Assembly (NCBI GenBank): GCA_963924565.1
Contig: OZ004612.1
Coordinates: 7,192,001-7,256,000, forward strand
Source of the DNA: Ascidiella aspersa
Lineage: Eukaryota
Length of the DNA stretch: 64,000 bases
Direction of reading: 5' to 3'
Under the pieces are notes generated by a model. That model was not told the DNA's origin. It was given only the letters and a program-made list of their open reading frames with translations, and searched no databases. This document shows, in pieces, positions 34,295 through 64,000 of the stretch. Each line of letters opens with the position of its first letter. Positions within the stretch are counted from its first letter, which is position 1. Both the position numbers and the translations under genes were made by a program.

Positions 34295-37200
34295 AGAAAT
34301 AGATTACCCTATTTAAGAAGAATGTACTATTTAAGAAGAATTTAAACTTATACAGAAAAAATATGTAGATTATGTTGTCTATGTTGAAAAAGCACGAAGA
34401 TACTCATTTTCAAAAAACAAATGAGTACAAAGATATTCATTGAGGGAGGCATTACTCGGCATACGCTTCGATCTTTGATAAATCTCTTTCGTGCCCTTCT
34501 GTTGTGCGTTCGTGGGTTCTATATCGTTTGATTGCACACAATGCCGTAACAAACGTGCCTTGCCCTTTTCCCAATAAAATATAATAATGAAGTCCAACGC
34601 TGTGGTGAAAGTTCTTGTTTGATTGAGTTAGTTGCCTTGTAAAAAGGATTTAGCGAATTGTATTGTTAGTACCCTAATATTTGCTACTGTTGATTACTAT
34701 TAGAGCTAACAGTGGAAAATTTACGAACCCCTATTCGCCGCCAAACAAAAGGAGTGGGAATAAAAAACTTTTCACCGTTATTAACAGATCCGCTTCGTGG
34801 GAAAAGAACGTTTTACGCACAAACTTAGGTCGTAGCAGCAATTGTTTAACTTCCGTGATATTCAAGCAAATAAGTAATTCCTGTACCAAACTGCATCAAA
34901 CGAAAGAAAAATCTCGTTAGAACATAAAAATTGCCTAATGTCTGCTGCAATAAACGCGATATTTTTGCGAACTCTGCCTAGATGTTGCAGGGGTTATCAA
35001 TATCCAAATATATTTTTGGGTGGTTTATTTACGATGTCCGTGTCGGTTCTAAGGTGTCTTAAGAGAACTATGGTATAAGGATACGGTCCCTGTGATAGCA
35101 GTAGTTTTATGTTTTGCATGATATTCAAACAAACGCAAAAAGGTAATCCCTGCATCAGATGTCTTCCAACCTTTGGCGTGGTTAAACTTATTGTTAAAAG
35201 CGTTTAAAATACGACCGCGTAAACAGGAAAATTGCTTTGGGCTTTTGAGGCTACAACGCCGATTATTTATCCCTAAAAAACACTTACTGCATCTTATTTA
35301 CCCACGCTTGCCGATTTATTGCAAATTAGATGTGCTACAAAGGTTTGGAAATAACGCCCCAGCGTTACCTTTGACAAGGGTTTTTCGGTATTATTGGCCA
35401 GTTATAGATCTACAATTTCGATAAAGCATTTTCGACAGCACCCATTGTTTTAATATAAATAAATTAGTGTGCCGTTATAGTAGGACGACCTGCGAATAAT
35501 ATAAACAATGTACAACAGCAACGTTTCAGTTTCATGTTCTATTGCGAGTATCAACCCATATAAGTGCATAACACGTTATTCCATGACAGACATTTAGAAT
35601 ACAGTTTAGCCTATTTTAACATTCAAACTTCAATGTATGACATATAATCGACTGGGAGAGTAAAGCAACAGGTCGTTATCTATCTTGTGTTTGTTCGTTT
35701 GAAGTAAACAAAGTTAAAATAATAAATAAACCTACGTCCTTATTTCTTCGCGACAAACACATTATGGCATCTTCGAAAGTTATTTATCGTATCACGATTA
35801 AAAAAACATCAAACATCTCAAAAAATAGTGTTGTGTTTTTTTACAAAAAAATCCATAATACAGATTCTTTCCATTAATATATAGATTTGTTTTTTTTAAT
35901 TTGTAATATTTTCGAAATACCAGTTTTTACCACAAGTAAAGCCAATGGCACTTCACAATCACCTCAAATTAGCTTTTTGACAGAAAACGTACGATTTTTT
36001 AAAAGATTGAAACAAAAATAAATATTTCATTTGATGCGAAAACATAAATAATGTGAATCCTGACATATAGAGTTGTCACGTGTCTACTGCATTTATTTAA
36101 TAAAACAGAAACAAATTCCTAGTGTTATTTTATGGTTATACTATGAAAGCAATGGATTGGTTGACTTTTTGTTTGTGCTCGTTTGGTGTTGTGATTGCTT
36201 CGGCACCACAAACGTGTGGTATAACTCAACCCACGCAACCTACACAGGACAAGGAAATCAAATATTATTAGAACGATCGAGCGTGGTTCTTAACTTTTAC
36301 ATTAGTTGGAAAGCAGTTTGCGAGGTACCAATCTATCCTATGCTGCTCATCACTATACCGAACTGAAACTTGTTCTTGTAATTCAATGGCAGACAAAGTG
36401 GCTCGTTTATGGCTTCTGTTAGTATTAGCCTTAATTTCATCTATGAGGATAAAAGAAGGAGAAGGTTCGTTTGTTGCTGAATAGTTTAATTCATTTTAAA
36501 GGTAGGGTTGGATCTAAGGTTGGTGCGAATCCATGCTCCCCCAAATTGTATATTTTGCACATTTTAAAAATGTAAATGCAAAATGTTTCACGCTTTGCGC
36601 GAAACTAGACCATCCTTATACTATGTTTTAGCCAGTTTACAAAAACACTTTTTTGTTTAAAGATACCGTGCTGCTCATCGCACCCTATGAGATCACGTTC
36701 GTGGCCATATAGATTTTCCGTCGTTTTAATAAAAATTAAAAGACATATTTTCATACCACACTATAAAACGTTATGGCCCTTTTTTTCCTTTTTTATTTAA
36801 GTGATTAAAAAAGGTTATTTAAATTAACGTTGCGAAGTTTATTTCTATATGACGTCTGATTTAGAAGTACCTTTTAACAAAAATGTAGGTTAGAAGATTT
36901 ATTCTGTGAACAACGTTATTGAGATTGTTTTAAACAATAGTAATGCTTTTTAATGTGAATCTGCGATGTCCTTCTACTTATTGTTTGCAGCACACAACTT
37001 TATTCTATTTAACGTTGAAAATACGACTTACACATTATCTGATGAACTTGTGGATGCGAACACGGCAGCAGCGAAGTGTAAACTGTTGGGTGGAGCTCTT
37101 GCTGTTTTGAAAGATCGATCTATTAGGGATAAGTTTTATCAGGAGATTCAAAACAGATATTACAACCCGGGTAAGTCTATTTGTACGATCAAGGTGGTGT

Positions 37201-38599
37201 GAAACATCTGATGCTTTTGACAACAAGGTTGTCCTATATTGTCGAATCGGAGCCTAACCCGATGACAAGTGTTATTATAACTACCTGTCCGATACTCGGA
37301 TGGTATCGATGCCGATCCGATACATAATTGAACTATGCATTACGGTCATGTTTTGCGATCTTATGTAGGGTTTTATCACGGAAAAGAAATTCCTCAGATA
37401 TATAACTTAACAAATCGACAAACAAGCTTTCTAAGCAAAACGTAAAATTTAAGTCCAATACCCTAATCGTGAACATGATTCTTCACGGAATTAGCTTTGA
37501 GCTTATCCATTCGACCAAATTTGCTAACTTGGCGATTGTTATGACGTCATTCGTTATTGGATCGGATTGCGGTACGTTTCGCCCAAATTATTTGCTATCC
37601 GCATCGGAATAAAACATTTAGATCTGACATCCCAAGTGACAATATAACCTGGATTCGTAACAAAACGTGAGTCAAATTCCTGTTTAGTTGAATCGTTCTA
37701 CTGAACACAAATTGTTAATGGAGCAATCCAACTTCATCTTATCGCATTTAGTTTCCACTATATTCCACTATATACACAGCTTTGAGTCAAGTAATTACTT
37801 AAGCTCTAATCGTTCTAATAGATTTTATCAGTTATGTGAAAATATAATACCACTGACATTGATAAGAAGGCATTTGTTTACTACACAGCTATTAAAATAA
37901 ATAACATTTCAATTTTGTCTTTGAAGTTAGCTGTTTTACGATTTTCTAAAACATTATAAAATGAACTAAAGCACACTTTTTTTAAGATCTTCAAAGAGTT
38001 TACATCTTTTACGGCAAAGTTTGGGATAAAACAGTTTACAAATTCTCAAATGAATCAGCAATTCTAAAAGATTGGTCAAAGGCGAACGAACTTGGGCAAC
38101 TATCGTATTTGGACTTCTACAAAACGTGAGGGAATTTGATAAAATTACTATTAATTATATTTCAGGCCAACTAAAAAAAACAATTACGAGAATTAAAAAC
38201 GATTTCAAGATTTGAAGGGTATCCTACTTTTCAATTGCAATAAAACAAGTTCCGTCATTACAGGTTTCCGCAATGAACACACTTGTTTAACCACTACGCT
38301 AAAATAGGCAATTCATGTAGAGCGACTGTTGATGGTTAAATTAGATTGTTTAATCTAAAATTTGTGGCTAACGATCGGAGCTATTTGTATTTAATTCATT
38401 ATTTTGAGACCAGAAAAACATACTATGAAAGTTTAGGAATCACTGGATCAAACAGAATTTAACGTTTTGTAATTGTAATAAGCGAAGTGAACAGTTCGCA
38501 TACGCAATTTGTTTTCTGTAACCAGGACCTTCTGGAGACGTTCTGGTCAACGGTAACGACTAACATTATATATTACATCAGATAGCTAGATAAACAAAT

Positions 38600-38674
38600 A
38601 GTCTGTAGTGTGGTTTGTACTCACCACCTCCGGCCATTGCGGACCACCGGTCTACCAACTAAGCTACTATGGCT
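38600..38674 (-). other. tRNA-like sequence, unit 2
   Basis: Homolog of 23877-23951 with A box and B box-like motifs. Confidence 0.6.
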
Positions 38675-38876
38675 CAGAGGGCAGCGATCACAGCACCTTT
38701 GCCTGTTGCACCCTGTTTGTACAAACAACCTCAATTAAACGGGACTAAATTAACAGCCCACTCACTCAGGGTCTGATTACACATTGTGTATATGAACGTT
38801 TTTAGTTAAATAAATTTCTTCAATTAAGGGTGTGAGAACAAACAGGGTGCGGCAGGAAATGGTCGTTTTCGCTTTG

Positions 38877-38953
38877 AGCCTGTGTAGTTCACTTGATAGA
38901 GCGAGTCGGTCCCTGTAGGACGGGTGATCGTAGGTTCAAAACTCACCCAGGCT
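38877..38953 (+). other. tRNA-like sequence, unit 2
   Basis: Acceptor-like AGCCTG/CAGGCT, D stem GTTC/GAGC, A box TAGTTCACTTGATAGAG, hairpin GTCC-CTGTA-GGAC, B box GGTTCAAAAC. Confidence 0.6.
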
Positions 38954-41900
38954 AGTTATTGTTTTAGCCGGGCCTTGCGTTTACTATTATCCTGAATAAG
39001 CCTAACGATTTCGGTAAGCCTATTCGAAGGCATACGGGTGTTGTAATAAGGTAGTAATAAAATTAATAACTTTTTCTAAAGGGACTCCTTAAACAACTTG
39101 TTTAAATTGAGATTGGTACATTTCAAGATTAATTCGTTTTAGTGTAATTACATAGGACTTAAAAAGTCTCCCTTCCTTGAACTAGACCAAATCGAAAGCC
39201 CCATTAACAATAAACAAAATTATTCAAATTTTATAAAAGTTGGTTGTTATAGTCAGATATGCAAAATATGAGTTGTGAAACCCTAACTTAGAATAACAAT
39301 TGACTAACTCATAGCTACCCGGTCTGAACGTCACGACATCCATGCAAGTGTTATTTTCTGATTTTTCTTCAAATATAATGTCTAAAGTAATGCAATATGC
39401 TGGCCCTTTTTGACCTGCATATTGCAAGTATACTTTTTAACAAGAAGGATGACGGAAAATGTTGATATATGCAAAGGGTCTGTGCTTTCCTGGCCTATAA
39501 TAGCATGGATTTGCTATTTGTTTAAGATTGTATTATAGGTTAAAGTAAAATTATTTGTTTAAACAGTGATTTTTTTGAACTTGTAATTTACGTAACATCC
39601 CGAATTATCCCATATTCAGCTGTTCTGTTAGTCGATATAGTTATCGTTGCTTTAAATAAACAACATGTATCACAGTAATGATACCCAGCGAGAAGCAATC
39701 TACTTTTGTCAATATCATCACAAAAGATGGAGGGTGCTGACTATAGGAGAACCATCAGACAATGGTCCAATCACCGACGGTTGCCCACCTTCCGAAGGTG
39801 AGTGTTGAGTCAGAGTGTGAATAATATGTGTTTGTACACATGTTTATACACAATATACATGCACCAAAACAAAACTATTTGAAACTTTTAGTCAAAGTTT
39901 AGAACTCCTACAGATTTAACTGTTTAATATTGATTGTTCGGTACGCTGTAATACAGTATAAAGTTTCTTATAAAACCCATAAAAAAAACGAAGCTGTGAA
40001 TCATATTTAAAGGAAGGGTTAAATTGTTAAACCAAGGATAAGGGGTCTATAGACTCAAGATTTCCTGGCAGCTTTATTATGCTTGTGTAGGTTGGTCAGA
40101 CGTCTTCCACTTATACGCAAGAAGGTATCCAGTTGCAGGACACCAACCAATCTACAACTTCTGGAGAAATTTTGATCCACGTGGAAGCAGGTTGACTGAT
40201 GTGAATAGTCCTTACGGTGGATTTGATCAATTAAAGAAAACATTTTATTTACCAGGTATCCGAAAAATATCACACACGGTTTACAGCCCTCCACAAATAT
40301 CTAGACGTGTTAGAAAAACTTTTACTTTATTATTTAACTAAAAATACCTATAAACCACGGCTATTATATTTTTTTTATATACTTTGCTGTGTATAACGAC
40401 ATACAAAGTAAATCTATCCGACTTTACCCTTTCCGGAAAGAAAATTGATCGCTTACCTTCTACGGGAATAAATTAGATGGGAGAGGTGTAAGTTTAGACT
40501 TAGTTTGTGAATAGACTGTTACAACCCACGACTTGAACAGCGATTTGCTGTTTGTTGAATTCAAATTGACCTAGGTTTGTTTCGATACGAGTTGCGTCAC
40601 GACTTTTTGTAAATGTTACAGCTTTCTACGCTTCCAAAGACGAAGATTTATTCGACCCAACTTAAGTTCAGCCCTTTGTTTTTTTAAGTTACGTCCTGAT
40701 ATTCCATTAAGAGGGTGTTAATATTGATAACAACAAACGAGTTTCATATTATTAATAATTAATATAGTGAGAAGCATTTTTGTGGGAGCTCAATACAACA
40801 CAAGTTCTAAGCAATGGTTTTGGAATGATGGTACAAACGCAAACTTTTCCACAACACCTACAACATGTAAACAGAAAGCATTGTCGTATGGAATGAAAGA
40901 TCTGGAAGATAGAAACTGCTCGGGGCAACTGGCCTACTAGTCGTGTGAAGTGAAATTAAATCGTGAGTACGCACAACCAACAAACCACTTTTCACCATCA
41001 TAATTACAACGTAGAAATTGATTACAATCAACATGTTGTGAATTATTGTTCAAAATTTAGTGACAACATGGATAAGAACGGAGAAATGTAACTCCACAAT
41101 TATTAACGTGAACTGGTCTAACGATTTTAACAAAGTGGCAACCAAAATGAAACTTAATCTTACTATAAAGGTATTTTGTTTCTTTTCAAAACAATATAGT
41201 AAAAATGGTAATTCAAAAAGGTAACCTTGTTCATAGTACTCGGAATTGCTTTATCCGCAGATTGAAATCGAAAGAAAAAATAGCAATGTGTTTAATGAAA
41301 GCAAGTCACTACAAACTGACCGCATCAAAATATCAGGATTAGAGCAACGTACCAACTACCACGTAAAAGTAAATTTATTCGACTTTTTTAGAGTTTTAGA
41401 GTGAATTCCGATTTAGCCTACTTGAATACCACATTTGCTTTAAGGTTATATTTTACAATTCCAACAACTTCAGTATTGCGTCAACTCATAACGTCACAAC
41501 TGGATTTGGCAGACCGGATCCAATCACTGACGCCTACGTCAAGTCATCACAGCCTTGTGTTATCGCCTTTCGTGAAACTTCTTGGCAAGACAATGCTACC
41601 TCGTACAAAGTAATGTTTCTTTATTTAACTTTATTTCTCTAGACTTCAATCTGAATTTTGTTTATAGATCACCGCCTCTAGTGTCAACGGTGAAACCAAT
41701 CATACACTTACCACACATAATTATCAAGGGTTTGGTGGAGTTACAATTGACACTAGTAGTCATGGAAGAGGGGTCAATATTACCTTTACGGTTTGTTATT
41801 TTTGTACTTTCCAAGGCATGGCATCGGGCCTTAAATGTGATATGAATTTATCCCAAAAATGTAATATGAGTTTATTTAACCGAAAATGTTATTAAACACA

Positions 41901-44310
41901 AAAGACACAATTTTAATTATAAAGGTCACAATTTCAAAAATTAATTGTTGTGCAACCGAACCACAGTTAAAACGGCAAAGCTTATGATGAAATTTTAACT
42001 GATCTAAGAAAAATCGAGCATAATTTTATCCAATGGTTTAGGGCAGGCCACTTTTATTGTAAACTTATAATGCAAATTAATTTTTTATTATTTTGAATTA
42101 CTCTTTTGAAGCATTATTTTTCAACATGTATTATCGTCAGAAATAAAATTTGAGCAATTCTCCGTATATTATAATGCGAACTGAAACACAGGTGCAACCA
42201 TTTTCGTGCGATGGAGAAAGCACGATTAAGGCCGTGGAAGGATTTTGTTATTTGCCTGATCCCTCAACTGCAGTGACTACTCCAAATCCAAGCACAGTAG
42301 TCACTGGTTGGTCAACCCAAGGTTACGAGTCAACCACGAAACAAGAAATTAAAACAGGTTTTAAAATATCAGATAATCCTGGCATTTCTTCCAATGCCAA
42401 TTTTCCTTGTATTACAGATGGCGACCCCTCATCTGACTTTGAATTACGGATAGTCAGTAAGTGAAACATGCGAAATTATTTCCTTGGATTTGCTCACTTG
42501 TACTTGTTGCTTCAAGCTTTAGCTGTGATTAACCGCTTGTTGTGTTTACATTTAGGTGGCGCTGTTGGCGCTGGTGTGCTTTTCCTTATTCTAATTGCTG
42601 TTGGGTGCGTCGTATACAGAAAGTATGAATATCATAGTATTGTAGGTTTATTGTATTATAAAAAAACAAATATATTCATGCTGGGTAGATTTAACTGTTT
42701 GCTATATTATTACCAACTATATCATTGGGCTCTGGCATGAATAATTCACGACAATAAGGAGGATTTAGGATTTAGTTAACGAATGCATAAAAATGTTTAG
42801 TACGACATCACAAATTTACCTAAAAATAAATTATCCTGTGGTCCACTAAAAAGGGCACAAGGACCCACATTTAGGCCGCGGCCCACAGTTTGTCGACCGC
42901 TGAACTATAGCATTACAATCTTTGGACACCTTAATGTCTCTTAGTCAGAGTTATTTACATTTTTTAGCCTCATTAGAATTAAATGCTATATACGTTTCAC
43001 TGGTCTGAGAATTTAATTACAGATACGCCCGAAATGTGAAACCACAAGATAAAATTCAACCCACCGTCAGTTTCTTTTCAAACGGTAAGGTTTACGAAAC
43101 AAACCTTGATTTTTAAATGTTTCCATTTTTTGGCAAAGTATACTGTTGTTTATTGTGTTGTTGTCATACATGTTTTCAGATGTGGAAAAAAACCGCCAGG
43201 ATGACGTCAATCAAGCGGGACCGTCGCGACCACCGGAAAATGTTTGTAGACGTTTTAGAATTGTAGACGTAAATGTAATGCGTGCAGGGAACTGTTTTTT
43301 TTTTCAATTTACAGTTCGAAAATCCATACGTGAACGTGGAAATCAAACGACCGAAAAATGCTGAATCAAAAAAGAAATTTAAGCTGAAGATCGCCTACGA
43401 GAAAAAATCGGCTGAAAACTGCAAAATATTTTCCAAAGAATTTCAGGTAACGTTGCTGAAAGATTCTACGCAAAATTAGGAAATAAGGCAACCGCTCTAA
43501 ACTTTCCTAAAATGGCTGTGTAAGATCTTTGCTGTACAATTTGTATTGTTTTTTGTAAGACAACATTTTGGTGATTTGATATAAAATAACGCGGCTGGTA
43601 TACAGATATATTAAAAGATGTGATTTAAATATATGATAATGGCCTTGACTTGTCTCTCAAGAAAGCTTTATTTTTAACTGATTAGTTTTAATGTTTGTAG
43701 GAAATCATTCGAATTGATAAAAGCACACCGAAATCCTGCAAACAAGCCACATCAGATTTAAATGCACCTCGAAACCGGTACAAGAACATATTTACATGTA
43801 AGTGTACATATCGATTATCCGTTTTTAATTTAATGTAATCGCTAGCTAGTTACGGCAATTTTAAATCTGTTCAAAGAAAGTTAATTTCCTTTAATATCAT
43901 TGCTTTGTTGTGAATACACACGGCCTACTATTTTAACCAAGCATGAACAATATTTTATAGACGACCACTCTAGAGTGTTTGTTTTTGGTGGAAGTGAAGG
44001 AAACGATTACATCAACGCCTCCTACATTCCGGTAAGGCCTCGTGCTTTTACTTTCAAAACAAATTTGATTGACAGAAACTTTGTTTCCTTGTAGCGTTAA
44101 CTTTCTTCACTTTTTTAGGGCTACCAAAATGACAAGAAATTTATTGCTACCCAAGGACCAAAGCCAAACACCATTTCCGACTTCTGGCTGATGGTTTGGC
44201 AGCAAGAATCCTCGGTGGTTGTAATGTTAACCAGACTGACAGAATACGGAAAGGTAAAATGTGTTAACAAATGCTGAAGCATATAAACACGCGACAAAAA
44301 ATATACCGAC

Positions 44311-44924
44311 AAAGGCTGCGGACTTCTGTCGGGACTCGGGACCCGGGGATAAAATTAGATGGGAGTGGTGTAAGTTTAGACTTGGATTACGCCTATACTG
44401 TTACAACCCATGACTTGAACATTTGCTGTTTGATGAACTCAAATTGACCTATGCATGTTTGATACGAGTTGCTTTACGACTATTTGTAAATGGTACAGCC
44501 CATTTTTTCATGTTACATCGTTATATTCGATTAAGACTCACCTAGTCGGTTAGTTTTGCTTGATCGGAATTGGATCTCTAAACTCGAATGAGACTACATA
44601 AAACTACCCGAATTCGCAGTAGCAATTTTCGAAACTGATAAGTCAAAAATTGTAATCTCGCAAAGGAGAATAGCATGTGGTGAAACATTTACCAAGCACG
44701 TGTTATGGAGGGATAAATTGGGTGACTATCCAATATGATTGTATTATTTTGTATCCACCTTGTTTTAGTTACGTAAGTTGGTTGAATACCGGTTATAAAG
44801 TTGGAGCCGGTTCGGGACTTGACGAGATCGCCACATTTGCCGGAGTTGGACTCGGGTTTCTTTTTTGTACGGAGTTAGACTCGTTAGTCGGACTCAGGTT
44901 ATTTTAACCGACTCCGCGGCACTG
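44311..44924. mobile_element. GACTCGG-rich hAT-like MITE, unit 2 (also 59612-60225 in unit 3)
   Basis: Perfect 8-bp TSD ATACCGAC (44303-44310 and 44925-44932), imperfect TIR AAAGGCTGCGGA/TCCGCGGCACTG, nested ~190-bp insertion. Confidence 0.8.
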
Positions 44925-47900
44925 ATACCGACCTCTCTAAATAACACCTTAATAACTTAACTTCCACACATACAAATAATTTTTGTAGGTAATAAACAAA
45001 TCCCATTGCACTTTTCATTACCTGTACGATACTGTTGTTTGTTGTCTTGACTTTAGAAAAAGTGTGAGCTGTACTGGCCAGATTTGGGACAACAGGAAAC
45101 ATATGGTCTTGTGATCGTCATTCTGGAAGAAGAAATCCACATCGGGGGAATAATCAGAAGAAAATTCACTTTGAAATATGGAAATTTACAAGTTGGTCTA
45201 CTACAGTATTTGTATTTATCGTTTAGCCTACTATATATAGTTCCATTTGAAATCCGTATGTGTTACTCCGCGTTTTCACAATGTTTATAGAGAACCTTGA
45301 TCCACCTGCAATATACCACGTGGCCCGACCACGGTATTCCAGTGACAACATCGAACATGATTTACCTGAGAAAAATGGTGGAAGAATTAAGAGATATATC
45401 AAAACCAGTAGTTATTCATTGCAGGTAATCTGTTGAACCCTTCAAACAAATCAATATGCTTTTAAAACCAAATATTACAGAGTAAATCTGACTTCTATTT
45501 TATTTTTTATATAACTGAAAATCAAACGACGCTTATTTAAAAAACTCACCAAGTCCTGATCCTCTAATGTTTACAATCTACCAACAATGTCGTTTAAAGG
45601 TCATACACACATCTATATCGTTGTAGCGACTCTGTACCTCTACCTAGCGGTAATTTATCTGCCCAACAATATTCCTGTGAAATTCCATACATCGCCTTCG
45701 GCTTGTGTCTGCTTTATGCCTTTGTACCGACTCTCTTTTTAAAAGACCGGCTCTGTCTCTCATCACGACCAGATTTAACTGATCTGATTTTCCTTGCTTT
45801 CCTCTGCTCGACCTAGTGTAATGCAATAAACTACACCAGCTAGCACTACACTTATATTAGTCGGCAATATTTTATTTAGATTGCACTACATCGTAATAGG
45901 ATATACTTACCTACATATGCCTACACAGTGCCGGAGCAGGACGAACGGGGACTTACATCGCCATGGACACCCTGTTTGACCAACTTGACGCTAAAGAGAA
46001 CATCGATGCTTCTACTTTTGTGTCAAAGATGAGGGAATGCCGAACAGACATGGTTCAGACCCTAGTGAGTAAAGCCGTTTTTAATTGACAATTATATATC
46101 ATTACTTGCAGCTTACTTAACATTTGAGTATTGCCACGTGTAGCTTACCTGACAGTTGGCTCAACTTTGTTCTGCAATATGACAAGAAATAAAGTGTAAT
46201 AGGCAGGTTATATTAAGTTATGCTATTTTTAATGTACCAGTAGTACCGTGGCCTTCTGAATTAGATTGTTAAACAACACATATACCTCTTGAAACAGGAA
46301 GAGTACAAGTTCATTCACAAACTGCTTGCTGAGCATGAAATGTTTCCCGACTTTGACCGATCGACAAGCGATCTCCAAACTATGACTAAATACGAATTGT
46401 AAGTAAGCGAGATTTATAAAACAAATTTTAGTAAAAGTTTTTTCGTTTACCCACTCGCCATATAGGCATAGTTTATTTCTATTTGAGCCCAAAACCACTA
46501 ATCACCAAGACTACCCTTAATTTTTTGGTTAATTATTTTCCTATCAGGAAACAATGTTTCGCTACGTATAGCATTTAGGTTATAATGAGCACTTGGAACA
46601 CGTACACTGAAAATAATGTCTTAATTAGTATCACATCAATACCTATATTGCTTTCTCTGTTTCATACCATGAATTTACAAATTACAGGGACTTGATTGGA
46701 TCCGAAGAGTTTGCGCTTCTTTCGGAATCATTGGGGAACTCGGATAAGATATGTCAGTGCTACACATTGACCAACATCACCTGATAATGTTTTTCGATTT
46801 AACCTTATTTTAAAACTAACGCTTTTATGCTTTTAGACGATAATTTCAGCGTCTCAACGTGGGTGGATAGACGTCAGGAAGTGGTTAGGATGAATGCTTC
46901 CTATATACAGGTTTGTTGTGTACAGTTAAGTGTAAAAACGTTTGCTACAGGGAGCGTGCAAATAGTTTACACGGAGTTGTCTCTTGTTAATGCAACCTAC
47001 TGGATATTTAAATAATCGATTTTAGAAGTGGTTAGGTGAACTTAAAGTTGTAGTAATTAAGTAGAGTCGCATTCGAAAAGAACCACATCTCATCCCAGTA
47101 TACGGTATACAGTACCCCTTATTTTAAATTGGGCTTTAGTACTACTCGTGGCTTTTGGTGATAGCTTTCGTAAAATTGACTACAATGAATAAACAAGTCT
47201 ATGGGTATTTTTTTCATCTTTTACAGTAGGATTTGGTTTGCGTTTGTCATTGGTTACATTAACTTACAACCACTATGGAGGCCGATTAGTCACTCTAAAG
47301 AGGCCTACATCTTAATTTTTGAACTAAAGAACCTAGGTTTCGCAATTGACTTCATTGCGTCTCAACAACCAGACAGCAAAACTGAGCAAGTGTTTTGGAA
47401 AGCTGCCGTGGAGCAACGAGTTGACGTCATCGTTAGTCTGGTGACTAGTTTTACATTATTTTCTATTAACGATATAGGCCTGCTTTTTTTTTGCTTACAA
47501 AAATATTTTATGCCAACACTTTACTTCAAATTTAGATTTCGAAAACTTGCATGCATTTGTTTGCATTTTAACCCAAAATCCGACTAGGTTTTAAATAACA
47601 TCACATTGCCTTATTCTTTCTCAGGATGACCAGCGTGACCGTTTTGATTCATTTGATTCAAACTCTTTGATTTTTCTTGGAAACAACATAAGCATTCAAA
47701 TAACGTCCGTCAATGACGACGAAGGGCATTCAGCGAAGTCTCTGTTGGTCAAGGTTAATGGTATTATTAAGGTATGGACTTAAACAGACTTGACTTTTTT
47801 ATGACCACTTTTAGAACTTACGGAACAATACGTAAATTGTACGTTTTAAGTTAAATAGGGGTTTCACCGCGAATATCCGTGACAGCGCGAACAGGTTCCC

Positions 47901-50900
47901 TGTAGAACTTTATATATTTAAACGTACCATATTGAATCTTGTATTTCGTCTTCTAGAAGTAAAAAACAGTAAAATAAAATAATTTCGGCGACTAACTGCT
48001 GACATATGTGCTCTTGACAGAAAACCAGGAAGATTTCTTACCTGGTCGTCAAAGGCTGGTGCAACCCAGGTGCGCCACCAAGTATAGATTCAATACTGGA
48101 AGCTGTTTCATCGATGCACAGATTGCTACACAATGCAACAAGAGAAGGGAGAGTACTTGTTTTCTGCAAGTATGTGCTTGTTTTTAGTTTACGGTAGAAA
48201 CTACCTTAACAAAAAACATGTATATTCAAATACAGGTGCCCACATCAATATTAAAACACAATATGGATGCCGATAATATCAGATCGGAGCCGATACTCGA
48301 TGCCAAGTGGTAGTATCGGTAGTCGTCCGATACTAGACTGGTATGAGTGCCGATCTGATACCAAATTAAAATGGGGATTTTAGCTTTAATGTGAGATGCA
48401 AATCAGCGATATCTACCTTATAATGTAAATGTATCAAAAAACAAAACTCTAACAACTTGATGTTCCCATACTTTTTACAAAAAGCTAATTTTGCCCAAAT
48501 AATCTTGAAAAAAAATACCCCTTAAAAATCCCATATTTTATTTTATGAATATCTGAGCATCGTAACGACGTATTTGGTATTGGATGGGATGGTGATAAAT
48601 TTTGTTTAAAATATCTGGCATCGGTATCGGAATAAAATGTCAAGTATCGGACAACACTAAATACCAATAATGAAAAATAGGATCAGTCATTATAAATTTG
48701 CGCTTAAATACAATAGCTGCAAATTGCTGACCAATGAACAGTAAACCATCTATTAGAATTCTTAAACCAGACAAACACAGAAGCATGTACACGTGGACAA
48801 AAATCTTTTGTTCGATAAAAAATCTTTGATAATCCTTAAAATAAACGTTTGACCTATTCAAATTGCTTATCAAGGCTTAATTTAGTTCCCACGATCCATT
48901 CAAGTTCGAGTCAAATGTGTTGTTTGTGTTAAACTCAATTACGAGTTTTCGCTTATACAGGGATGGACGAAATTCAACTGGTATTTTCATTGCCCTGGTG
49001 AACATTCTAGAACGTCTTATGGCTCAGAAAAAAGTAGATGTTTTCCGAACCGTGAAGGATCTTCGTGATCTGAGACCAAATATAATAGATAATCTGGTAA
49101 GTATCGAACAATTCAAAATCAAATTTTCGAATATGTTGTTCTTAACGCCCTAAAACAGCGGTTGTTAACCAGTAACCCCCCCTTTTTGCGCGAATGTGTA
49201 ATGTTATTTGTTGTATATAGCCTTTGCATTGTGTATGATCACATGTTTGTAAACACGATTAACGCAAAGTTTAATTTTGTTTCACGCTTTGCCCGATTAA
49301 GTGTCAACTTTTGTAGCTTATTGTAGTCCCACTGATATGTTATCAAAGAATTCCTAATTTTTGTTTCGTAGGATACATATGTAATATCTGGGGGAGGGCG
49401 CAAGCACAGGATAATTACCAATTGGGGCGCGGTAGGAAAAAGGTTTAGAACCACTGTCCTAAAGAGTATTTGCGCTAATGCTTAAGAGAACATCTTTATT
49501 CGTTCAGGATTGCTACATGTTCATCTACAATGCTGTTCTGGCCTACTTGTCATCAACCAACCCCTACGTTAACTGGACTCAAAAAATAACATAAAGAAAT
49601 AGATTACCCTATTTAAGAAGAATGTACTATTTAAGAAGAATTTAAACTTATACAGAAAAAATATGTAGATTATGTTGTCTATGTTGAAAAAGCACGAAGA
49701 TACTCATTTTCAAAAAACAAATGAGTACAAAGATATTCATTGAGGGAGGCATTACTCGGCATACGCTTCGATCTTTGATAAATCTCTTTCGTGCCCTTCT
49801 GTTGTGCGTTCGTGGGTTCTATATCGTTTGATTGCACACAATGCCGTAACAAACGTGCCTTGCCCTTTTCCCAATAAAATATAATAATGAAGTCCAACGC
49901 TGTGGTGAAAGTTCTTGTTTGATTGAGTTAGTTGCCTTGTAAAAAGGATTTAGCGAATTGTATTGTTAGTACCCTAATATTTGCTACTGTTGATTACTAT
50001 TAGAGCTAACAGTGGAAAATTTACGAACCCCTATTCGCCGCCAAACAAAAGGAGTGGGAATAAAAAACTTTTCACCGTTATTAACAGATCCGCTTCGTGG
50101 GAAAAGAACGTTTTACGCACAAACTTAGGTCGTAGCAGCAATTGTTTAACTTCCGTGATATTCAAGCAAATAAGTAATTCCTGTACCAAACTGCATCAAA
50201 CGAAAGAAAAATCTCGTTAGAACATAAAAATTGCCTAATGTCTGCTGCAATAAACGCGATATTTTTGCGAACTCTGCCTAGATGTTGCAGGGGTTATCAA
50301 TATCCAAATATATTTTTGGGTGGTTTATTTACGATGTCCGTGTCGGTTCTAAGGTGTCTTAAGAGAACTATGGTATAAGGATACGGTCCCTGTGATAGCA
50401 GTAGTTTTATGTTTTGCATGATATTCAAACAAACGCAAAAAGGTAATCCCTGCATCAGATGTCTTCCAACCTTTGGCGTGGTTAAACTTATTGTTAAAAG
50501 CGTTTAAAATACGACCGCGTAAACAGGAAAATTGCTTTGGGCTTTTGAGGCTACAACGCCGATTATTTATCCCTAAAAAACACTTACTGCATCTTATTTA
50601 CCCACGCTTGCCGATTTATTGCAAATTAGATGTGCTACAAAGGTTTGGAAATAACGCCCCAGCGTTACCTTTGACAAGGGTTTTTCGGTATTATTGGCCA
50701 GTTATAGATCTACAATTTCGATAAAGCATTTTCGACAGCACCCATTGTTTTATTATAAATAAATTAGTGTGCCGTTATAGTAGGACGACCTGCGAATAAT
50801 ATAAACAATGTACAACAGCAACGTTTCAGTTTCATGTTCTATTGCGAGTATCAACCCATATAAGTGCATAACACGTTATTCCATGACAGACATTTAGAAT

Positions 50901-51685
50901 ACAGTTTAGCCTGTTTTAACATTCAAACTTCAATGTATGACATATAATCGACTGGGAGAGTAAAGCAACAGGTCGTTATCTATCTTGTGTTTGTTCGTTT
51001 GAAGTAAACAAAGTTAAAATAATAAATAAACCTACGTCCTTATTTCTTCGCGACAAACACATTATGGCATCTTCGAAAGTTATTTATCGTATCACGATTA
51101 AAAAAACATCAAACATCTCAAAAAATAGTGTTGTGTTTTTTTACAAAAAAATCCATAATACAGATTCTTTCCATTAATATATAGATTTGTTTTTTTTAAT
51201 TTGTAATATTTTCGAAATACCAGTTTTTACCACAAGTAAAGCCAATGGCACTTCACAATCACCTCAAATTAGCTTTTTGACAGAAAACGTACGATTTTTT
51301 AAAAGATTGAAACAAAAATAAATATTTCATTTGATGCGAAAACATAAATAATGTGAATCCTGACATATAGAGTTGTCACGTGTCTACTGCATTTATTTAA
51401 TAAAACAGAAACAAATTCCTAGTGTTATTTTATGGTTATACTATGAAAGCAATGGATTGGTTGACTTTTTGTTTGTGCTCGTTTGGTGTTGTGATTGCTT
51501 CGGCACCACAAACGTGTGGTATAACTCAACCCACGCAACCTACACAGGACAAGGAAATCAAATATTATTAGAACGATCGAGCGTGGTTCTTAACTTTTAC
51601 ATTAGTTGGAAAGCAGTTTGCGAGGTACCAATCTATCCTATGCTGCTCATCACTATACCGAACTGAAACTTGTTCTTGTAATTCA

Positions 51686-54600
51686 ATGGCAGACAAAGTG
51701 GCTCGTTTATGGCTTCTGTTAGTATTAGCCTTAATTTCATCTATGAGGATAAAAGAAGGAGAAGGTTCGTTTGTTGCTGAATAGTTTAATTCATTTTAAA
51801 GGTAGGGTTGGATCTAAGGTTGGTGCGAATCCATGCTCCCCCAAATTGTATATTTTGCACATTTTAAAAATGTAAATGCAAAATGTTTCACGCTTTGCGC
51901 GAAACTAGACCATCCTTATACTATGTTTTAGCCAGTTTACAAAAACACTTTTTTGTTTAAAGATACCGTGCTGCTCATCGCACCCTATGAGATCACGTTC
52001 GTGGCCATATAGATTTTCCGTCGTTTTAATAAAAATTAAAAGACATATTTTCATACCACACTATAAAACGTTATGGCCCTTTTTTTCCTTTTTTATTTAA
52101 GTGATTAAAAAAGGTTATTTAAATTAACGTTGCGAAGTTTATTTCTATATGACGTCTGATTTAGAAGTACCTTTTAACAAAAATGTAGGTTAGAAGATTT
52201 ATTCTGTGAACAACGTTATTGAGATTGTTTTAAACAATAGTAATGCTTTTTAATGTGAATCTGCGATGTCCTTCTACTTATTGTTTGCAGCACACAACTT
52301 TATTCTATTTAACGTTGAAAATACGACTTACACATTATCTGATGAACTTGTGGATGCGAACACGGCAGCAGCGAAGTGTAAACTGTTGGGTGGAGCTCTT
52401 GCTGTTTTGAAAGATCGATCTATTAGGGATAAGTTTTATCAGGAGATTCAAAACAGATATTACAACCCGGGTAAGTCTATTTGTACGATCAAGGTGGTGT
52501 GAAACATCTGATGCTTTTGACAACAAGGTTGTCCTATATTGTCGAATCGGAGCCTAACCCGATGACAAGTGTTATTATAACTACTAGTCCGATACTCGGA
52601 TGGTATCGATGCCGATCCGATACAAAATTGAACTATGCATTACGGTCATGTTTTGCGATCTTATGTAGGGTTTTATCACGGAAAAGAAATTCCTCAGATA
52701 TATAACTTAACAAATCGACAAACAAGCTTTCTAAGCAAAACGTAAAATTTAAGTCCAATACCCTAATCGTGAACATGATTCTTCACGGAATTAGCTTTGA
52801 GCTTATCCATTCGACCAAATTTGCTAACTTGGCGATTGTTATGACGTCATTCGTTATTGGATCGGATTGCGGTACGTTTCGCCCAAATTATTTGCTATCC
52901 GCATCGGAATAAAACATTTAGATCTGACATCCCAAGTGACAATATAACCTGGATTCGTAACAAAACGTGAGTCAAATTCCTGTTTAGTTGAATCGTTCTA
53001 CTGAACACAAATTGTTAATGGAGCAATCCAACTTCATCTTATCGCATTTAGTTTCCACTATATTCCACTATATACACAGCTTTGAGTCAAGTAATTACTT
53101 AAGCTCTAATCGTTCTAATAGATTTTATCAGTTATGTGAAAATATAATACCACTGACATTGATAAGAAGGCATTTGTTTACTACACAGCTATTAAAATAA
53201 ATAACATTTCAATTTTGTCTTTGAAGTTAGCTGTTTTACGATTTTCTAAAACATTATAAAATGAACTAAAGCACACTTTTTTTAAGATCTTCAAAGAGTT
53301 TACATCTTTTACGGCAAAGTTGGGGATAAAACAGTTTACAAATTCTCAAATGAATCAGCAATTCTAAAAGATTGGTCAAAGGCGAACGAACTTGGGCAAC
53401 TATCGTATTTGGACTTCTACAAAACGTGAGGGAATTTGATAAAATTACTATTAATTATATTTCAGGCCAACTAAAAAAAACAATTACGAGAATTAAAAAC
53501 GATTTCAAGATTTGAAGGGTATCCTACTTTTCAATTGCAATAAAACAAGTTCCGTCATTACAGGTTTCCGCAATGAACACACTTGTTTAACCACTACGCT
53601 AAAATAGGCAATTCATGTAGAGCGACTGTTGATGGTTAAATTAGATTGTTTAATCTAAAATTTGTGGCTAACGATCGGAGCTATTTGTATTTAATTCATT
53701 ATTTTGAGACCAGAAAAACATACTATGAAAGTTTAGGAATCACTGGATCAAACAGAATTTAACGTTTTGTAATTGTAATAAGCGAAGTGAACAGTTCGCA
53801 TACGCAATTTGTTTTCTGTAACCAGGACCTTCTGGAGACGTTCTGGTCAACGGTAACGACTAACATTATATATTACATCAGATAGCTAGATAAACAAATA
53901 GTCTGTAGTGTGGTTTGTACTCACCACCTCCGGCCATTGCGGACCACCGGTCTACCAACTAAGCTACTATGGCTCAGAGGGCAGCGATCACAGCACCTTT
54001 GCCTGTTGCACCCTGTTTGTACAAACAACCTCAATTAAACGGGACTAAATTAACAGCCCACTCACTCAGGGTCTGATTACACATTGTGTATATGAACGTT
54101 TTTAGTTAAATAAATTTCTTCAATTAAGGGTGTGAGAACAAACAGGGTGCGGCAGGAAATGGTCGTTTTCGCTTTGAGCCTGTGTAGTTCACTTGATAGA
54201 GCGAGTCGGTCCCTGTAGGACGGGTGATCGTAGGTTCAAAACTCACCCAGGCTAGTTATTGTTTTAGCCGGGCCTTGCGTTTACTATTATCCTGAATAAG
54301 CCTAACGATTTCGGTAAGCCTATTCGAAGGCATACGGGTGTTGTAATAAGGTAGTAATAAAATTAATAACTTTTTCTAAAGGGACTCCTTAAACAACTTG
54401 TTTAAATTGAGATTGGTACATTTCAAGATTAATTCGTTTTAGTGTAATTACATAGGACTTAAAAAGTCTCCCTTCCTTGAACTAGACCAAATCGAAAGCC
54501 CCATTAACAATAAACAAAATTATTCAAATTTTATAAAAGTTGGTTGTTATAGTCAGATATGCAAAATATGAGTTGTGAAACCCTAACTTAGAATAACAAT

Positions 54601-57600
54601 TGACTAACTCATAGCTACCCGGTCTGAACGTCACGACATCCATGCAAGTGTTATTTTCTGATTTTTCTTCAAATATAATGTCTAAAGTAATGCAATATGC
54701 TGGCCCTTTTTGACCTGCATATTGCAAGTATACTTTTTAACAAGAAGGATGACGGAAAATGTTGATATATGCAAAGGGTCTGTGCTTTCCTGGCCTATAA
54801 TAGCATGGATTTGCTATTTGTTTAAGATTGTATTATAGGTTAAAGTAAAATTATTTGTTTAAACAGTGATTTTTTTGAACTTGTAATTTACGTAACATCC
54901 CGAATTATCCCATATTCAGCTGTTCTGTTAGTCGATATAGTTATCGTTGCTTTAAATAAACAACATGTATCACAGTAATGATACCCAGCGAGAAGCAATC
55001 TACTTTTGTCAATATCATCACAAAAGATGGAGGGTGCTGACTATAGGAGAACCATCAGACAATGGTCCAATCACCGACGGTTGCCCACCTTCCGAAGGTG
55101 AGTGTTGAGTCAGAGTGTGAATAATATGTGTTTGTACACATGTTTATACACAATATACATGCACCAAAACAAAACTATTTGAAACTTTTAGTCAAAGTTT
55201 AGAACTCCTACAGATTTAACTGTTTAATATTGATTGTTCGGTACGCTGTAATACAGTATAAAGTTTCTTATAAAACCCATAAAAAAAACGAAGCTGTGAA
55301 TCATATTTAAAGGAAGGGTTAAATTGTTAAACCAAGGATAAGGGGTCTATAGACTCAAGATTTCCTGGCAGCTTTATTATGCTTGTGTAGGTTGGTCAGA
55401 CGTCTTCCACTTATACGCAAGAAGGTATCCAGTTGCAGGACACCAACCAATCTACAACTTCTGGAGAAATTTTGATCCACGTGGAAGCAGGTTGACTGAT
55501 GTGAATAGTCCTTACGGTGGATTTGATCAATTAAAGAAAACATTTTATTTACCAGGTATCCGAAAAATATCACACACGGTTTACAGCCCTCCACAAATAT
55601 CTAGACGTGTTAGAAAAACTTTTACTTTATTATTTAACTAAAAATACCTATAAACCACGGCTATTATATTTTTTTTATATACTTTGCTGTGTATAACGAC
55701 ATACAAAGTAAATCTATCCGACTTTACCCTTTCCGGAAAGAAAATTGATCGCTTACCTTCTACGGGAATAAATTAGATGGGAGAGGTGTAAGTTTAGACT
55801 TAGTTTGTGAATAGACTGTTACAACCCACGACTTGAACAGCGATTTGCTGTTTGTTGAATTCAAATTGACCTAGGTTTGTTTCGATACGAGTTGCGTCAC
55901 GACTTTTTGTAAATGTTACAGCTTTCTACGCTTCCAAAGACGAAGATTTATTCGACCCAACTTAAGTTCAGCCCTTTGTTTTTTTAAGTTACGTCCTGAT
56001 ATTCCATTAAGAGGGTGTTAATATTGATAACAACAAACGAGTTTCATATTATTAATAATTAATATAGTGAGAAGCATTTTTGTGGGAGCTCAATACAACA
56101 CAAGTTCTAAGCAATGGTTTTGGAATGATGGTACAAACGCAAACTTTTCCACAACACCTACAACATGTAAACAGAAAGCATTGTCGTATGGAATGAAAGA
56201 TCTGGAAGATAGAAACTGCTCGGGGCAACTGGCCTACTACTCGTGTGAAGTGAAATTAAATCGTGAGTACGCACAACCAACAAACCACTTTTCACCATCA
56301 TAATTACAACGTAGAAATTGATTACAATCAACATGTTGTGAACTATTGTTCAAAATTTAGTGACAACATGGATAACAACGGAGAAATGTAACTCCACAAT
56401 TATTAACGTGAACTGGTCTAACGATTTTAACAAAGTGGCAACCAAAATGAAACTTAATCTTACTATAAAGGTATTTTGTTTCTTTTCAAAACAATATAGT
56501 AAAAATGGTAATTCAAAAAGGTAACCTTGTTCATAGTACTCGGAATTGCTTTATCCGCAGATTGAAATCGAAAGAAAAAATAGCAATGTGTTTAATGAAA
56601 GCAAGTCACTACAAACTGACCGCATCAAAATATCAGGATTAGAGCAACGTACCAACTACCACGTAAAAGTAAATTTATTCGACTTTTTTAGAGTTTTAGA
56701 GTGAATTCCGATTTAGCCTACTTGAATACCACATTTGCTTTAAGGTTATATTTTACAATTCCAACAACTTCAGTATTGCGTCAACTCATAACGTCACAAC
56801 TGGATTTGGCAGACCGGATCCAATCACTGACGCCTACGTCAAGTCATCACAGCCTTGTGTTATCGCCTTTCGTGAAACTTCTTGGCAAGACAATGCTACC
56901 TCGTACAAAGTAATGTTTCTTTATTTAACTTTATTTCTCTAGACTTCAATCTGAATTTTGTTTATAGATCACCGCCTCTAGTGTCAACGGTGAAACCAAT
57001 CATACACTTACCACACATAATTATCAAGGGTTTGGTGGAGTTACAATTGACACTAGTAGTCATGGAAGAGGGGTCAATATTACCTTTACGGTTTGTTATT
57101 TTTGTACTTTTCAAGGCATGGCATCGGGCCTTAAATGTGATATGAATTTATCCCAAAAATGTAATATGAGTTTATTTAACCGAAAATGTTATTAAACACA
57201 AAAGACACAATTTTAATTATAAAGGTCACAATTTCAAAAATTAATTGTTGTGCAACCGAACCACAGTTAAAACGGCAAAGCTTATGATGAAATTTTAACT
57301 GATCTAAGAAAAATCGAGCATAATTTTATCCAATGGTTTAGGGCAGGCCACTTTTATTGTAAACTTATAATGCAAATTAATTTTTTATTATTTTGAATTA
57401 CTCTTTTGAAGCATTATTTTTCAACATGTATTATCGTCAGAAATAAAATTTGAGCAATTCTCCGTATATTATAATGCGAACTGAAACACAGGTGCAACCA
57501 TTTTCGTGCGATGGAGAAAGCACGATTAAGGCCGTGGAAGGATTTTGTTATTTGCCTGATCCCTCAACTGCAGTGAGTACTCCAAATCCAAGCACAGTAG

Positions 57601-60600
57601 TCACTGGTTGGTCAACCCAAGGTTACGAGTCAACCACGAAACAAGAAATTAAAACAGGTTTTAAAATATCAGATAATCCTGGCATTTCTTCCAATGCCAA
57701 TTTTCCTTGTATTACAGATGGCGACCCCTCATCTGACTTTGAATTACGGATAGTCAGTAAGTGAAACATGCGAAATTATTTCCTTGGATTTGCTCACTTG
57801 TACTTGTTGCTTCAAGCTTTAGCTGTGATTAACCGCTTGTTGTGTTTACATTTAGGTGGCGCTGTTGGCGCTGGTGTGCTTTTCCTTATTCTAATTGCTG
57901 TTGGGTGCGTCGTATACAGAAAGTATGAATATCATAGTATTGTAGGTTTATTGTATTATAAAAAAACAAATATATTCATGCTGGGTAGATTTAACTGTTT
58001 GCTATATTATTACCAACTATATCATTGGGCTCTGGCATGAATAATTCACGACAATAAGGAGGATTTAGGATTTAGTTAACGAATGCATAAAAATGTTTAG
58101 TACGACATCACAAATTTACCTAAAAATAAATTATCCTGTGGTCCACTAAAAAGGGCACAAGGACCCACATTTAGGCCGCGGCCCACAGTTTGTCGACCGC
58201 TGAACTATAGCATTACAATCTTTGGACACCTTAATGTCTCTTAGTCAGAGTTATTTACATTTTTTAGCCTCATTAGAATTAAATGCTATATACGTTTCAC
58301 TGGTCTGAGAATTTAATTACAGATACGCCCGAAATGTGAAACCACAAGATAAAATTCAACCCACCGTCAGTTTCTTTTCAAACGGTAAGGTTTACGAAAC
58401 AAACCTTGATTTTTAAATGTTTCCATTTTTTGGCAAAGTATACTGTTGTTTATTGTGTTGTTGTCATACATGTTTTCAGATGTGGAAAAAAACCGCCAGG
58501 ATGACGTCAATCAAGCGGGACCGTCGCGACCACCGGAAAATGTTTGTAGACGTTTTAGAATTGTAGACGTAAATGTAATGCGTGCAGGGAACTGTTTTTT
58601 TTTTTCAATTTACAGTTCGAAAATCCATACGTGAACGTGGAAATCAAACGACCGAAAAATGCTGAATCAAAAAAGAAATTTAAGCTGAAGATCGCCTACG
58701 AGAAAAAATCGGCTGAAAACTGCAAAATATTTTCCAAAGAATTTCAGGTAACGTTGCTGAAAGATTCTACGCAAAATTAGGAAATAAGGCAGCCGCTCTA
58801 AACTTTCCTAAAATGGCTGTGTAAGATCTTTGCTGTACAATTTGTATTGTTTTTTGTAAGACAACATTTTTGTGATTTGATATAAAATAACGCGGCTGGT
58901 ATACAGATATATTAAAAGATGTGATTTAAATATATGATAATGGCCTTGACTTGTCTCTCAAGAAAGCTTTATTTTTAACTGATTAGTTTTAATGTTTGTA
59001 GGAAATCATTCGAATTGATAAAAGCACACCGAAATCCTGCAAACAAGCCACATCAGATTTAAATGCACCTCGAAACCGGTACAAGAACATATTTACATGT
59101 AAGTGTACATATCGATTATCCGTTTTTAATTTAATGTAATCGCTAGCTAGTTACGGCAATTTTAAATCTGTTCAAAGAAAGTTAATTTCCTTTAATATCA
59201 TTGCTTTGTTGTGAATACACACGGCCTACTATTTTAACCAAGCATGAACAATATTTTATAGACGACCACTCTAGAGTGTTTGTTTTTGGTGGAAGTGAAG
59301 GAAACGATTACATCAACGCCTCCTACATTCCGGTAAGGCCTCGTGCTTTTACTTTCAAAACAAATTTGATTGACAGAAACTTTGTTTCCTTGTAGCGTTA
59401 ACTTTCTTCACTTTTTTAGGGCTACCAAAATGACAAGAAATTTATTGCTACCCAAGGACCAAAGCCAAACACCATTTCCGACTTCTGGCTGATGGTTTGG
59501 CAGCAAGAATCCTCGGTGGTTGTAATGTTAACCAGACTGACAGAATACGGAAAGGTAAAATGTGTTAACAAATGCTGAAGCATATAAACACGCGACAAAA
59601 AATATACCGACAAAGGCTGCGGACTTCTGTCGGGACTCGGGACCCGGGGATAAAATTAGATGGGAGTGGTGTAAGTTTAGACTTGGATTACGCCTATACT
59701 GTTACAACCCATGACTTGAACATTTGCTGTTTGATGAACTCAAATTGACCTATGCATGTTTGATACGAGTTGCTTTACGACTATTTGTAAATGGTACAGC
59801 CCATTTTTTCATGTTACATCGTTATATTCGATTAAGACTCACCTAGTCGGTTAGTTTTGCTTGATCGGAATTGGATCTCTAAACTCGAATGAGACTACAT
59901 AAAACTACCCGAATTCGCAGTAGCAATTTTCGAAACTGATAAGTCAAAAATTGTAATCTCGCAAAGGAGAATAGCATGTGGTGAAACATTTACCAAGCAC
60001 GTGTTATGGAGGGATAAATTGGGTGACTATCCAATATGATTGTATTATTTTGTATCCACCTTGTTTTAGTTACGTAAGTTGGTTGAATACCGGTTATAAA
60101 GTTGGAGCCGGTTCGGGACTTGACGAGATCGCCACATTTGCCGGAGTTGGACTCGGGTTTCTTTTTTGTACGGAGTTAGACTCGTTAGTCGGACTCAGGT
60201 TATTTTAACCGACTCCGCGGCACTGATACCGACCTCTCTAAATAACACCTTAATAACTTAACTTCCACACATACAAATAATTTTTGTAGGTAATAAACAA
60301 ATCCCATTGCACTTTTCATTACCTGTACGATACTGTTGTTTGTTGTCTTGACTTTAGAAAAAGTGTGAGATGTACTGGCCAGATTTGGGACAACAGGAAA
60401 CATATGGTCTTGTGATCGTCATTCTGGAAGAAGAAATCCACATCGGGGGAATAATCAGAAGAAAATTCACTTTGAAATATGGAAATTTACAAGTTGGTCT
60501 ACTACAGTATTTGTATTTATCGTTTAGCCTACTATATATAGTTCCATTTGAAATCCGTATGTGTTACTCCGCGTTTTCACAATGTTTATAGAGAACCTTG

Positions 60601-63473: not shown

Positions 63474-64000
63474 GTATGTGCTTGTTTTTAGTTTACGGTA
63501 GAAACTACCTTGACAAAAACATGTATATGCAAATACAGGTGCCCACATCAATATTAAAACACAATATGGATGCCGATAATATCAGATCGGAGCCGATACT
63601 CGATGCCAAGTGGTAGTATCGGTACACGTCCGATACTAGGCTGGTATGAGTGCCGATCTGATACCAAATAAAAATGGGGATTTTAGCCTTAATGTGAGAT
63701 GCAAATCAGCGATATCTACCTCATAATGTAAATTTATCAAAAAACATAACCCTAACAACTTGATGTTCCCATACTTTTTACCAAAAAGTTAATTTTGGCC
63801 AAATAATCTATAGGGAAAAAATCCTCTTAAAAATCCCATATTTTATTTTTATGAATATCTGAGCATCGTAACGACGTATTTGGTATTGGATGGGATTGTG
63901 ATAAATTTTGTTTAAAATATCTGGTATTGGTATTGGAATAAAATGTCAAGTATCGGACAACACTAAATACCAATAATGAAAAATAGGATCAGTCATTATA

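Follow-up and report, generated by a model that had tools for sequence, protein, structure and literature searches.

Among described systems, human FCGR2C (in its FCGR2C-Stop form) is by analogy, in how it arose and what became of it, the nearest match to the hybrid gene that we describe here in the ascidian Ascidiella aspersa. According to the available text of PMC6563257 and PMC6786274, FCGR2C lies where the copies of a tandem segmental duplication meet and arose by unequal crossover of the flanking paralogs, with a 5' part from the downstream gene, a 3' part from the upstream gene and a stop in an ectodomain exon that makes it a pseudogene in most people. The middle one of three tandem genes in our window, that is, the whole 64,000-nt stretch of DNA that was analyzed, has its parts in the same order and also carries a stop in an ectodomain exon. 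However, as described in the same text, FCGR2C belongs to an unrelated protein family; its parental tails are opposite in sign (ITAM versus ITIM), whereas the phosphatase tails here are ~94% identical; and its event is millions of years old, shared by apes and made of 80-kb modules, in contrast to a duplication of 15.3 kb that is 0.2% diverged and absent in three other samples.

As for the encoded proteins, they resemble the receptor PTPs with tandem D1-D2 domains (PTPRS, LAR/PTPRF, PTPRE, PTPRA, and CD45) in having a signal peptide, FN3, one transmembrane (TM) segment, an active-type D1 (RNRY, WPD, HCSAGxGRTG, Q-loop) and a D2 that is degenerate. The structures that best match one D1 exon are of these same receptors, in a ranking that favors two-domain chains. 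However, unlike in these proteins, the ectodomain here opens with a C-type lectin-like domain (Lectin_C E=0.025, under the curated cut-off), and the family has grown, on one contig, into a large number of tandem arrays. A 2006 account of the sea-urchin phosphatome by Byrum et al. reportedly described lineage-specific receptor PTPs with lectin domains ("PTPRLec"), which, going by this description, would be alike in being lectin-bearing receptor PTPs of a marine deuterostome. The term "PTPRLec" returned no literature match, the word "lectin" is absent from the available text of PMC5336234, and a search of open-literature listings on such receptors and on ascidian chimeras found no description of this lectin-phosphatase family. 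When single D1 exons were used as homologue queries, they returned zero and three matches, with no ascidian lectin-PTP among them, and the lectin exon returned 20, chiefly short unnamed fragments.

The array and its gene family

Coordinates are positions in the window, which is part of contig C6, unless given in Mb or on that contig (C6). Self-comparison of the window together with 160 kb of flanks (224 kb in all, containing no N and thus no assembly gap between the young copies described below) revealed seven tandem units, u1 to u7, of ~15 kb apiece. While the original prediction of three units holds for the window, which contains u1 to u3, it does not hold for the whole array, which extends ~66 kb past the window. 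Unit 1, or gene A, spans 20916..34291, unit 2, the chimeric gene, 36386..49594, and unit 3, or gene B, 51686..64000, all on the forward strand; gene B ends ~1 kb past the window, and flanking DNA was used for this portion. Directly upstream of the array is the La-domain exon (14181-14720) of a LARP6-like gene, which seemingly extends to ~18.4 kb and is best matched by LARP6 of Phallusia mammillata (84%), followed by Ciona (76-78%). Downstream of the array, at C6 ~7358950-7363040, there is a 2.04-kb tandem duplication with 99.1% identity.

Exons were placed via an alignment of six units, which yielded a minimal model of 27 exons and 1015 codons with splice sites conserved across these units. 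The model is conservation-based, and RNA backs just the introns flanking two D1 exons, in a paralog-like contig: this spliced contig from run X4, with letters nearer u7 than u2, lacks the 99-bp intron that precedes the WPD exon, and continues into both adjoining exons. The raw RNA of run X7 (26 reads aligned, 24 partly) showed no splice joint and is uninformative on expression. The predicted order is signal peptide, lectin-like domain, FN3, stalk, one TM, D1 and D2. Single exons of unit 2, when run against Pfam, matched Lectin_C and fn3, both weakly, and Y_phosphatase (PF00102) in two sets, one of D1 exons and one of D2 exons, corresponding to two PTP domains. The half-domain lectin exon scores 15.8 bits against a Lectin_C cut-off of 22.6, which is passed by 1 of 20 relatives, and the lectin domain has four cysteines, at residues 56, 120, 137, and 146. 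The transmembrane exon of unit 2 (42556..42622, forward strand), placed by hydropathy and by its exon edges, corresponds to the single hydropathy peak above 1.9, at residue 390. In the unit-2 model, D1 displays 17 residues of motif sequence plus the Q-loop, and its catalytic motifs (pTyr loop, WPD, HCxxGxGR, and Q-loop) are found in all six modeled units; D2 is devoid of a canonical P-loop. The WPD-loop exon of D1 (45291..45424, forward strand), whose end takes in the opening codons of the catalytic motif, matches positions 132-176 of Y_phosphatase (E=2e-9).

Two further candidate exons, situated between the halves of the lectin domain and open in all six aligned units, may judging from this conservation belong to the gene although they are outside the minimal model. 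The first (40091..40255, forward strand) has AG/GT edges and phase 1-1, with no Pfam match, no usable Atlas match and no RNA support, and the second (39676-39797), likewise matching no family, is splice-flanked and conserved in the same six units, with a phase that requires one more exon, which was not found. Two other candidates, 37622-37666 and 38527-38552, were rejected as they show no conservation.

Going by these predicted domains, the window genes are ascidian C-type-lectin/FN3/TM/D1-D2 receptor phosphatases and part of a large family. The 308.6-Mb genome contains at least 122 matches to the lectin exon, 121 of those listed being on C6, and at least 40 to the WPD exon, nearly all of those listed being on C6, neither of which is a gene count. 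The family clusters on C6 at ~5.0-5.2, 7.2-7.3, 8.0-8.1, 27.9-28.0, 29.0-30.2, and 31.3-32.6 Mb, and one cluster that we examined contains complete lectin-FN3-D1-D2 genes, of which some carry additional lectin exons.

Exchange is routine within this lectin-phosphatase family. For each of the six pairings of u1, u3, u4, and u6, the shared runs exceed in length those obtained in 1000 shuffles (p<=0.006, in a test that clustering of sites can inflate), and the nearest neighbors of units shift between head, middle, and tail. Unit 5 (C6 ~7272300-7290900), with a family-like head through the first FN3 exons followed by a phosphatase tail that is mostly 50-85% identical in protein, is probably a chimera of greater age, and behind it, at C6 ~7290300-7290800, lies an orphan stalk-TM fragment. 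A sister array at C6 30.1-30.25 Mb contains duplicated blocks of 92-99.2% identity and includes a ~43-kb tandem duplication (30177470-30242701) with blocks of 94.7-99.2%, and a minisatellite lies near C6 30164800-30167300. By simple counts, pN/pS between paralogs is 0.33-0.74 overall and 0.48-0.99 in the ectodomain.

A chimeric switch within a probable young tandem duplication

It was originally predicted that unit 2 is B-like up to 45280 and A-like from 45355 on, and the strings and coordinates quoted to this effect proved correct when re-checked. We counted informative sites three ways, in gap-free columns of a MAFFT alignment of six units (u1, u2, u3, u4, u6, and u7, unit 5 being excluded because its 3' half is diverged), and the switch is equally clear in these counts. 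Left of 45317, unit 2 agrees with unit 3 at 743 of 755 sites, with unit 1 at nine, and has its own letter at three, and right of 45317 it agrees with unit 1 at 124 of 135 sites, with unit 3 at three, and has its own letter at eight. DNA trees pair u2 with u3 for head and middle but with u1 for the tail, with a support of 1.0 each, and the longer intron said to be shared with unit 1 is indeed common to u1 and u2, by 39 bp, and missing from u3. Between the last B-type site at 45280 and the first A-type site at 45355 lies a crossover window of 74 bp (45281..45354, forward strand) that is the same in genes A and B, in keeping with the ~75 bp expected at the WPD-loop exon; it is made of the final 10 bp of an intron and the initial 64 bp of the WPD exon. 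Its right edge is firm since the B letter at 45355, a G present in 16 of 48 reads of a sample from another animal (X6), is found in other animals and thus predates the event. That these 74 bp might be a special site was considered and rejected, because genes A and B, which are 96-97% identical in the D1 region, share 52 identical runs of at least 50 bp, the longest of 198 bp.

Pairwise alignment reveals two near-identical copies on the forward strand, with a period of 15,299-15,301: copy 1 (29982..45354), composed of A tail, spacer and B-type head, and copy 2 (45281..60655), composed of A-type tail, spacer and B head. The pair had been foreseen, with limits of ~29990-45290 and ~45290-60590 that had to be corrected. 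The near-identical tract equals one period plus the 74-bp overlap, and identity is unbroken across introns and the intergenic spacer, with only 29 substitutions and three indels in 15.37 kb (32 events, or 0.2% divergence). A tract of this length running through the spacer fits a single unequal crossover, unlike conversion. Short conversion-like tracts are frequent among the units, and a contig of another sample (X1), in which collapse is possible, shows a different mosaic by the same exon, being A-type at 45141-45179 but B-type at 45234-45272, which would suit a history in which three older genes were homogenized by long gene conversion with copy number unchanged. However, such a history offers no reason for the same start and end point in two genes, it has to account for unbroken identity over introns, spacer, and exactly one period plus 74 bp, and the read depth of X6 already points to one unit fewer; we give it almost no credence.

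It is thus unequal crossover that we favor, and with good confidence: the middle gene would be a B5'/A3' hybrid from one recent event that left a probable pseudogene. The proposed derivation of A - (B5'/A3') - B by unequal crossover is retained as the best reading of the gapless tract of one period plus 74 bp, but not as a fact about the animal, since the arrangement is seen solely in the assembly and three DNA-type samples are devoid of junction alleles. Gene A on one chromatid would have mispaired with gene B on the other along D1, and an exchange within the 74-bp identical stretch would have produced A - B5'/A3' - B. The partners were presumably the same or a very close haplotype (a sister chromatid, or the homologue in a homozygous carrier), which we infer from the copies sharing letters that other animals lack and differing less from each other than those animals do from the assembly.

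After this event, the copies would have diverged without visible selection. Of the 29 substitutions, 18 were scored as private, seven of these to copy 1 and 11 to copy 2; the remaining 11 match paralogs, in a few patches, mainly at 33291-33810, where seven of them cluster. All eight exonic differences alter a residue, one of them to a stop, and none is synonymous, a proportion that departs significantly neither from neutrality (P=0.14) nor from the A-B ratio (P=0.08), and that is compatible with relaxed selection and equally with random error. The private differences comprise six transitions and 12 transversions (P=0.12), with an excess of C<->G (4 of 18, P=0.03). Short interspersed repeats occur in introns at 32970-33350, 37230-37330, 40464-40622, 44346-44499, and 48270-48360, the first being a peak of read depth and loose ends, and several of the paralog-matching differences are in or near such repeats.

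The 11 paralog-like substitutions, with seven of them at 33291-33810, are also what imported or standing variation would leave behind if the crossover was real but joined different homologues, in which case most of the 32 differences, the stop included, would be older allelic differences. The low divergence argues against this, as 0.2% is several-fold under that of other samples versus the window, and so do the 18 private differences and the lack of a synonymous change among the eight exonic ones. We therefore regard different homologues as improbable, and retain an exchange within one haplotype or between very close ones.

Junction alleles and read depth in other samples

Five of 11 listed sequencing runs were compared with the window (X1, X2, X4, X6, and X7), all from samples other than the source animal. 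X6 consists of raw DNA reads from another individual (1,936 Mb read, ~6.3-fold at a single locus). Its mean depth over the B head (34911-39300) is 5.9, to be compared with 12.4 and 6.3 for simulated array reads with and without the duplication, respectively, at 1% divergence. A fit of X6 depth in 30 bins is likewise best without the duplication (squared error of 430-451 versus at least 770), although at 2% divergence the order is reversed (1227 without versus 834 with). As for the junction alleles, the u2/u3 letter A at 45280 occurs in none of 32 X6 reads, which has a probability of P=0.002 given one haplotype with both u2 and u3, and the u1/u2 letter T at 45395 occurs in two of 33. Neither letter is found in the contigs of two other samples, X1 and X2. 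Since contigs can show presence but never absence, it is X6 that carries weight, with the proviso that it has other alleles, so that the share of B letters left and right of the junction is uninformative in this sample. Six long X1 contigs differ from the window by 5-14 letters per 518-655 bases, or by 15 in 924, paralog collapse being possible, and the long contigs of other samples are ~1-2% diverged from the window, versus 0.2% between the copies. Given three samples labeled as the same species without junction alleles and the single depth of X6, the duplication is not fixed. It is probably real and young, and the depth of X6 suits a polymorphic duplication and one that never existed equally well.

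If it never existed, two haplotypes, A1-B1 and A2-B2, would have been falsely joined in tandem at the WPD exon, and the stop would be a null allele of B. The 15.3-kb period is close to the usual length of long reads, neither the junction nor doubled depth could be traced in X6, X1, and X2, and the private differences are rich in transversions and C<->G, with eight residue changes out of eight also expected of random errors. Homopolymer indels are the typical pattern of long-read error, which 29 substitutions versus three indels is not. In addition, the 74 bp are the sole perfect overlap of A and B at the junction and are flanked by indels, which would make them a poor substrate for joining long reads by overlap, and the switch itself is sharp. 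An artefact would also need haplotypes that are 0.2% apart and yet share letters absent in three other samples. There is precedent for such errors in the available text of PMC9516828, which describes false chimeric gains and reports that, of the false duplications that long-read assemblies still contain, 61-92% are on the same scaffold; false heterotype duplications resemble our locus in that near-identical copies adjoin and a hybrid gene sits between them. As characterized there, however, false duplications tend to show raised heterozygosity, adjoining gaps, and half depth. The assembly here is gapless, and the copies are only 0.2% apart, which is low by comparison with samples from animals other than the source. 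On balance, we deem an assembly artefact unlikely; should the duplication be false, the locus would serve as a warning on chimeric gene calls in this assembly.

Fate of the hybrid and of gene A

If the crossover is real, as we favor, the prediction that the B ectodomain was joined to the A phosphatase tail is right about the hybrid but not about its boundary, since the B part crosses the membrane and reaches into the first two thirds of D1, WPD loop included. The implied new receptor has little to distinguish it: only 27 of 1015 modeled residues differ between u2 and u3, 23 of them after the switch, of which 21 are A-derived, and the WPD, P-loop, and Q-loop are the same as in B, no catalytic motif of D1 being altered. 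The idea is weakened further by a stop that is private to unit 2. In the second lectin exon (40768-40962), a premature TAG (40938..40940, forward strand) replaces the TAC that is found in the other five aligned units (u1, u3, u4, u6, and u7). This is codon 144 of the minimal model, two residues ahead of the fourth lectin cysteine, and it shortens the open frame of the lectin exon to 69 aa, versus 90 aa in u3, so that unit 2 does not encode a full-length protein. The stop would cost the lectin fold its last cysteine and delete all that lies downstream. A stop this far upstream predicts nonsense-mediated decay of the mRNA. From the predicted coding sequence, the chimera is probably a pseudogene. 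Gene B, whose frame is open and whose splice sites are intact in the minimal model, would stay the functional copy.

Gene A has lesions of its own, both on the forward strand. Its exon-13 acceptor (28544..28545) reads AA instead of the AG found in the other five aligned units, and its exon-14 donor (28819..28820) reads TT instead of GT. As the two broken splice sites are upstream of the crossover, gene A may have been damaged too. At the exon-14 donor, 12 of 14 X6 reads have G and two have T, paralog reads included, and this T may be a shared polymorphism; from the local sequence, a cryptic GT six bases on could provide an in-frame rescue.

The position of these lesions would also suit a working or once-favored receptor, in which the crossover salvaged the tail of a splice-damaged A by placing it on a B head, with the stop being either a local null allele or one that is avoided by skipping of the phase 1-1 exon. 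The stop aside, the frame of unit 2 is open and its splice sites and D1 motifs are intact, and human FCGR2C is known with both open and stop alleles (PMC6786274, available text). However, skipping the exon would delete half the lectin domain, a mere 21 A-derived residues set the product apart from B with the same WPD, P-loop, and Q-loop, and there is no carrier among the three other samples. We find such a receptor very hard to credit, and a hybrid that was probably a pseudogene from early on remains our preferred reading.

As unequal crossover in a tandem array, the event adds one more case to a well-known process. Its value is modest: it is a copy-number variant that is very young and probably rare, whose breakpoint is placed within 74 bp and whose hybrid appears to have been disabled almost at once, while the A parent may be damaged as well. 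More speculatively, and less likely than not, this ascidian group might possess a large, fast-turning family of C-type-lectin receptor phosphatases in which heads and tails are reshuffled between neighbors and vary from animal to animal. If true, immunity or self-recognition would here be served by a polymorphic system of inhibitory receptors, akin to the vertebrate KIR, Ly49, and FCGR clusters, and the locus would catch one birth-and-death cycle at base resolution. The large ascidian family of lectin-phosphatase receptors to which the locus points merits more attention than the junction itself and, should it prove polymorphic and be expressed by blood cells, would become a candidate for a recognition system.
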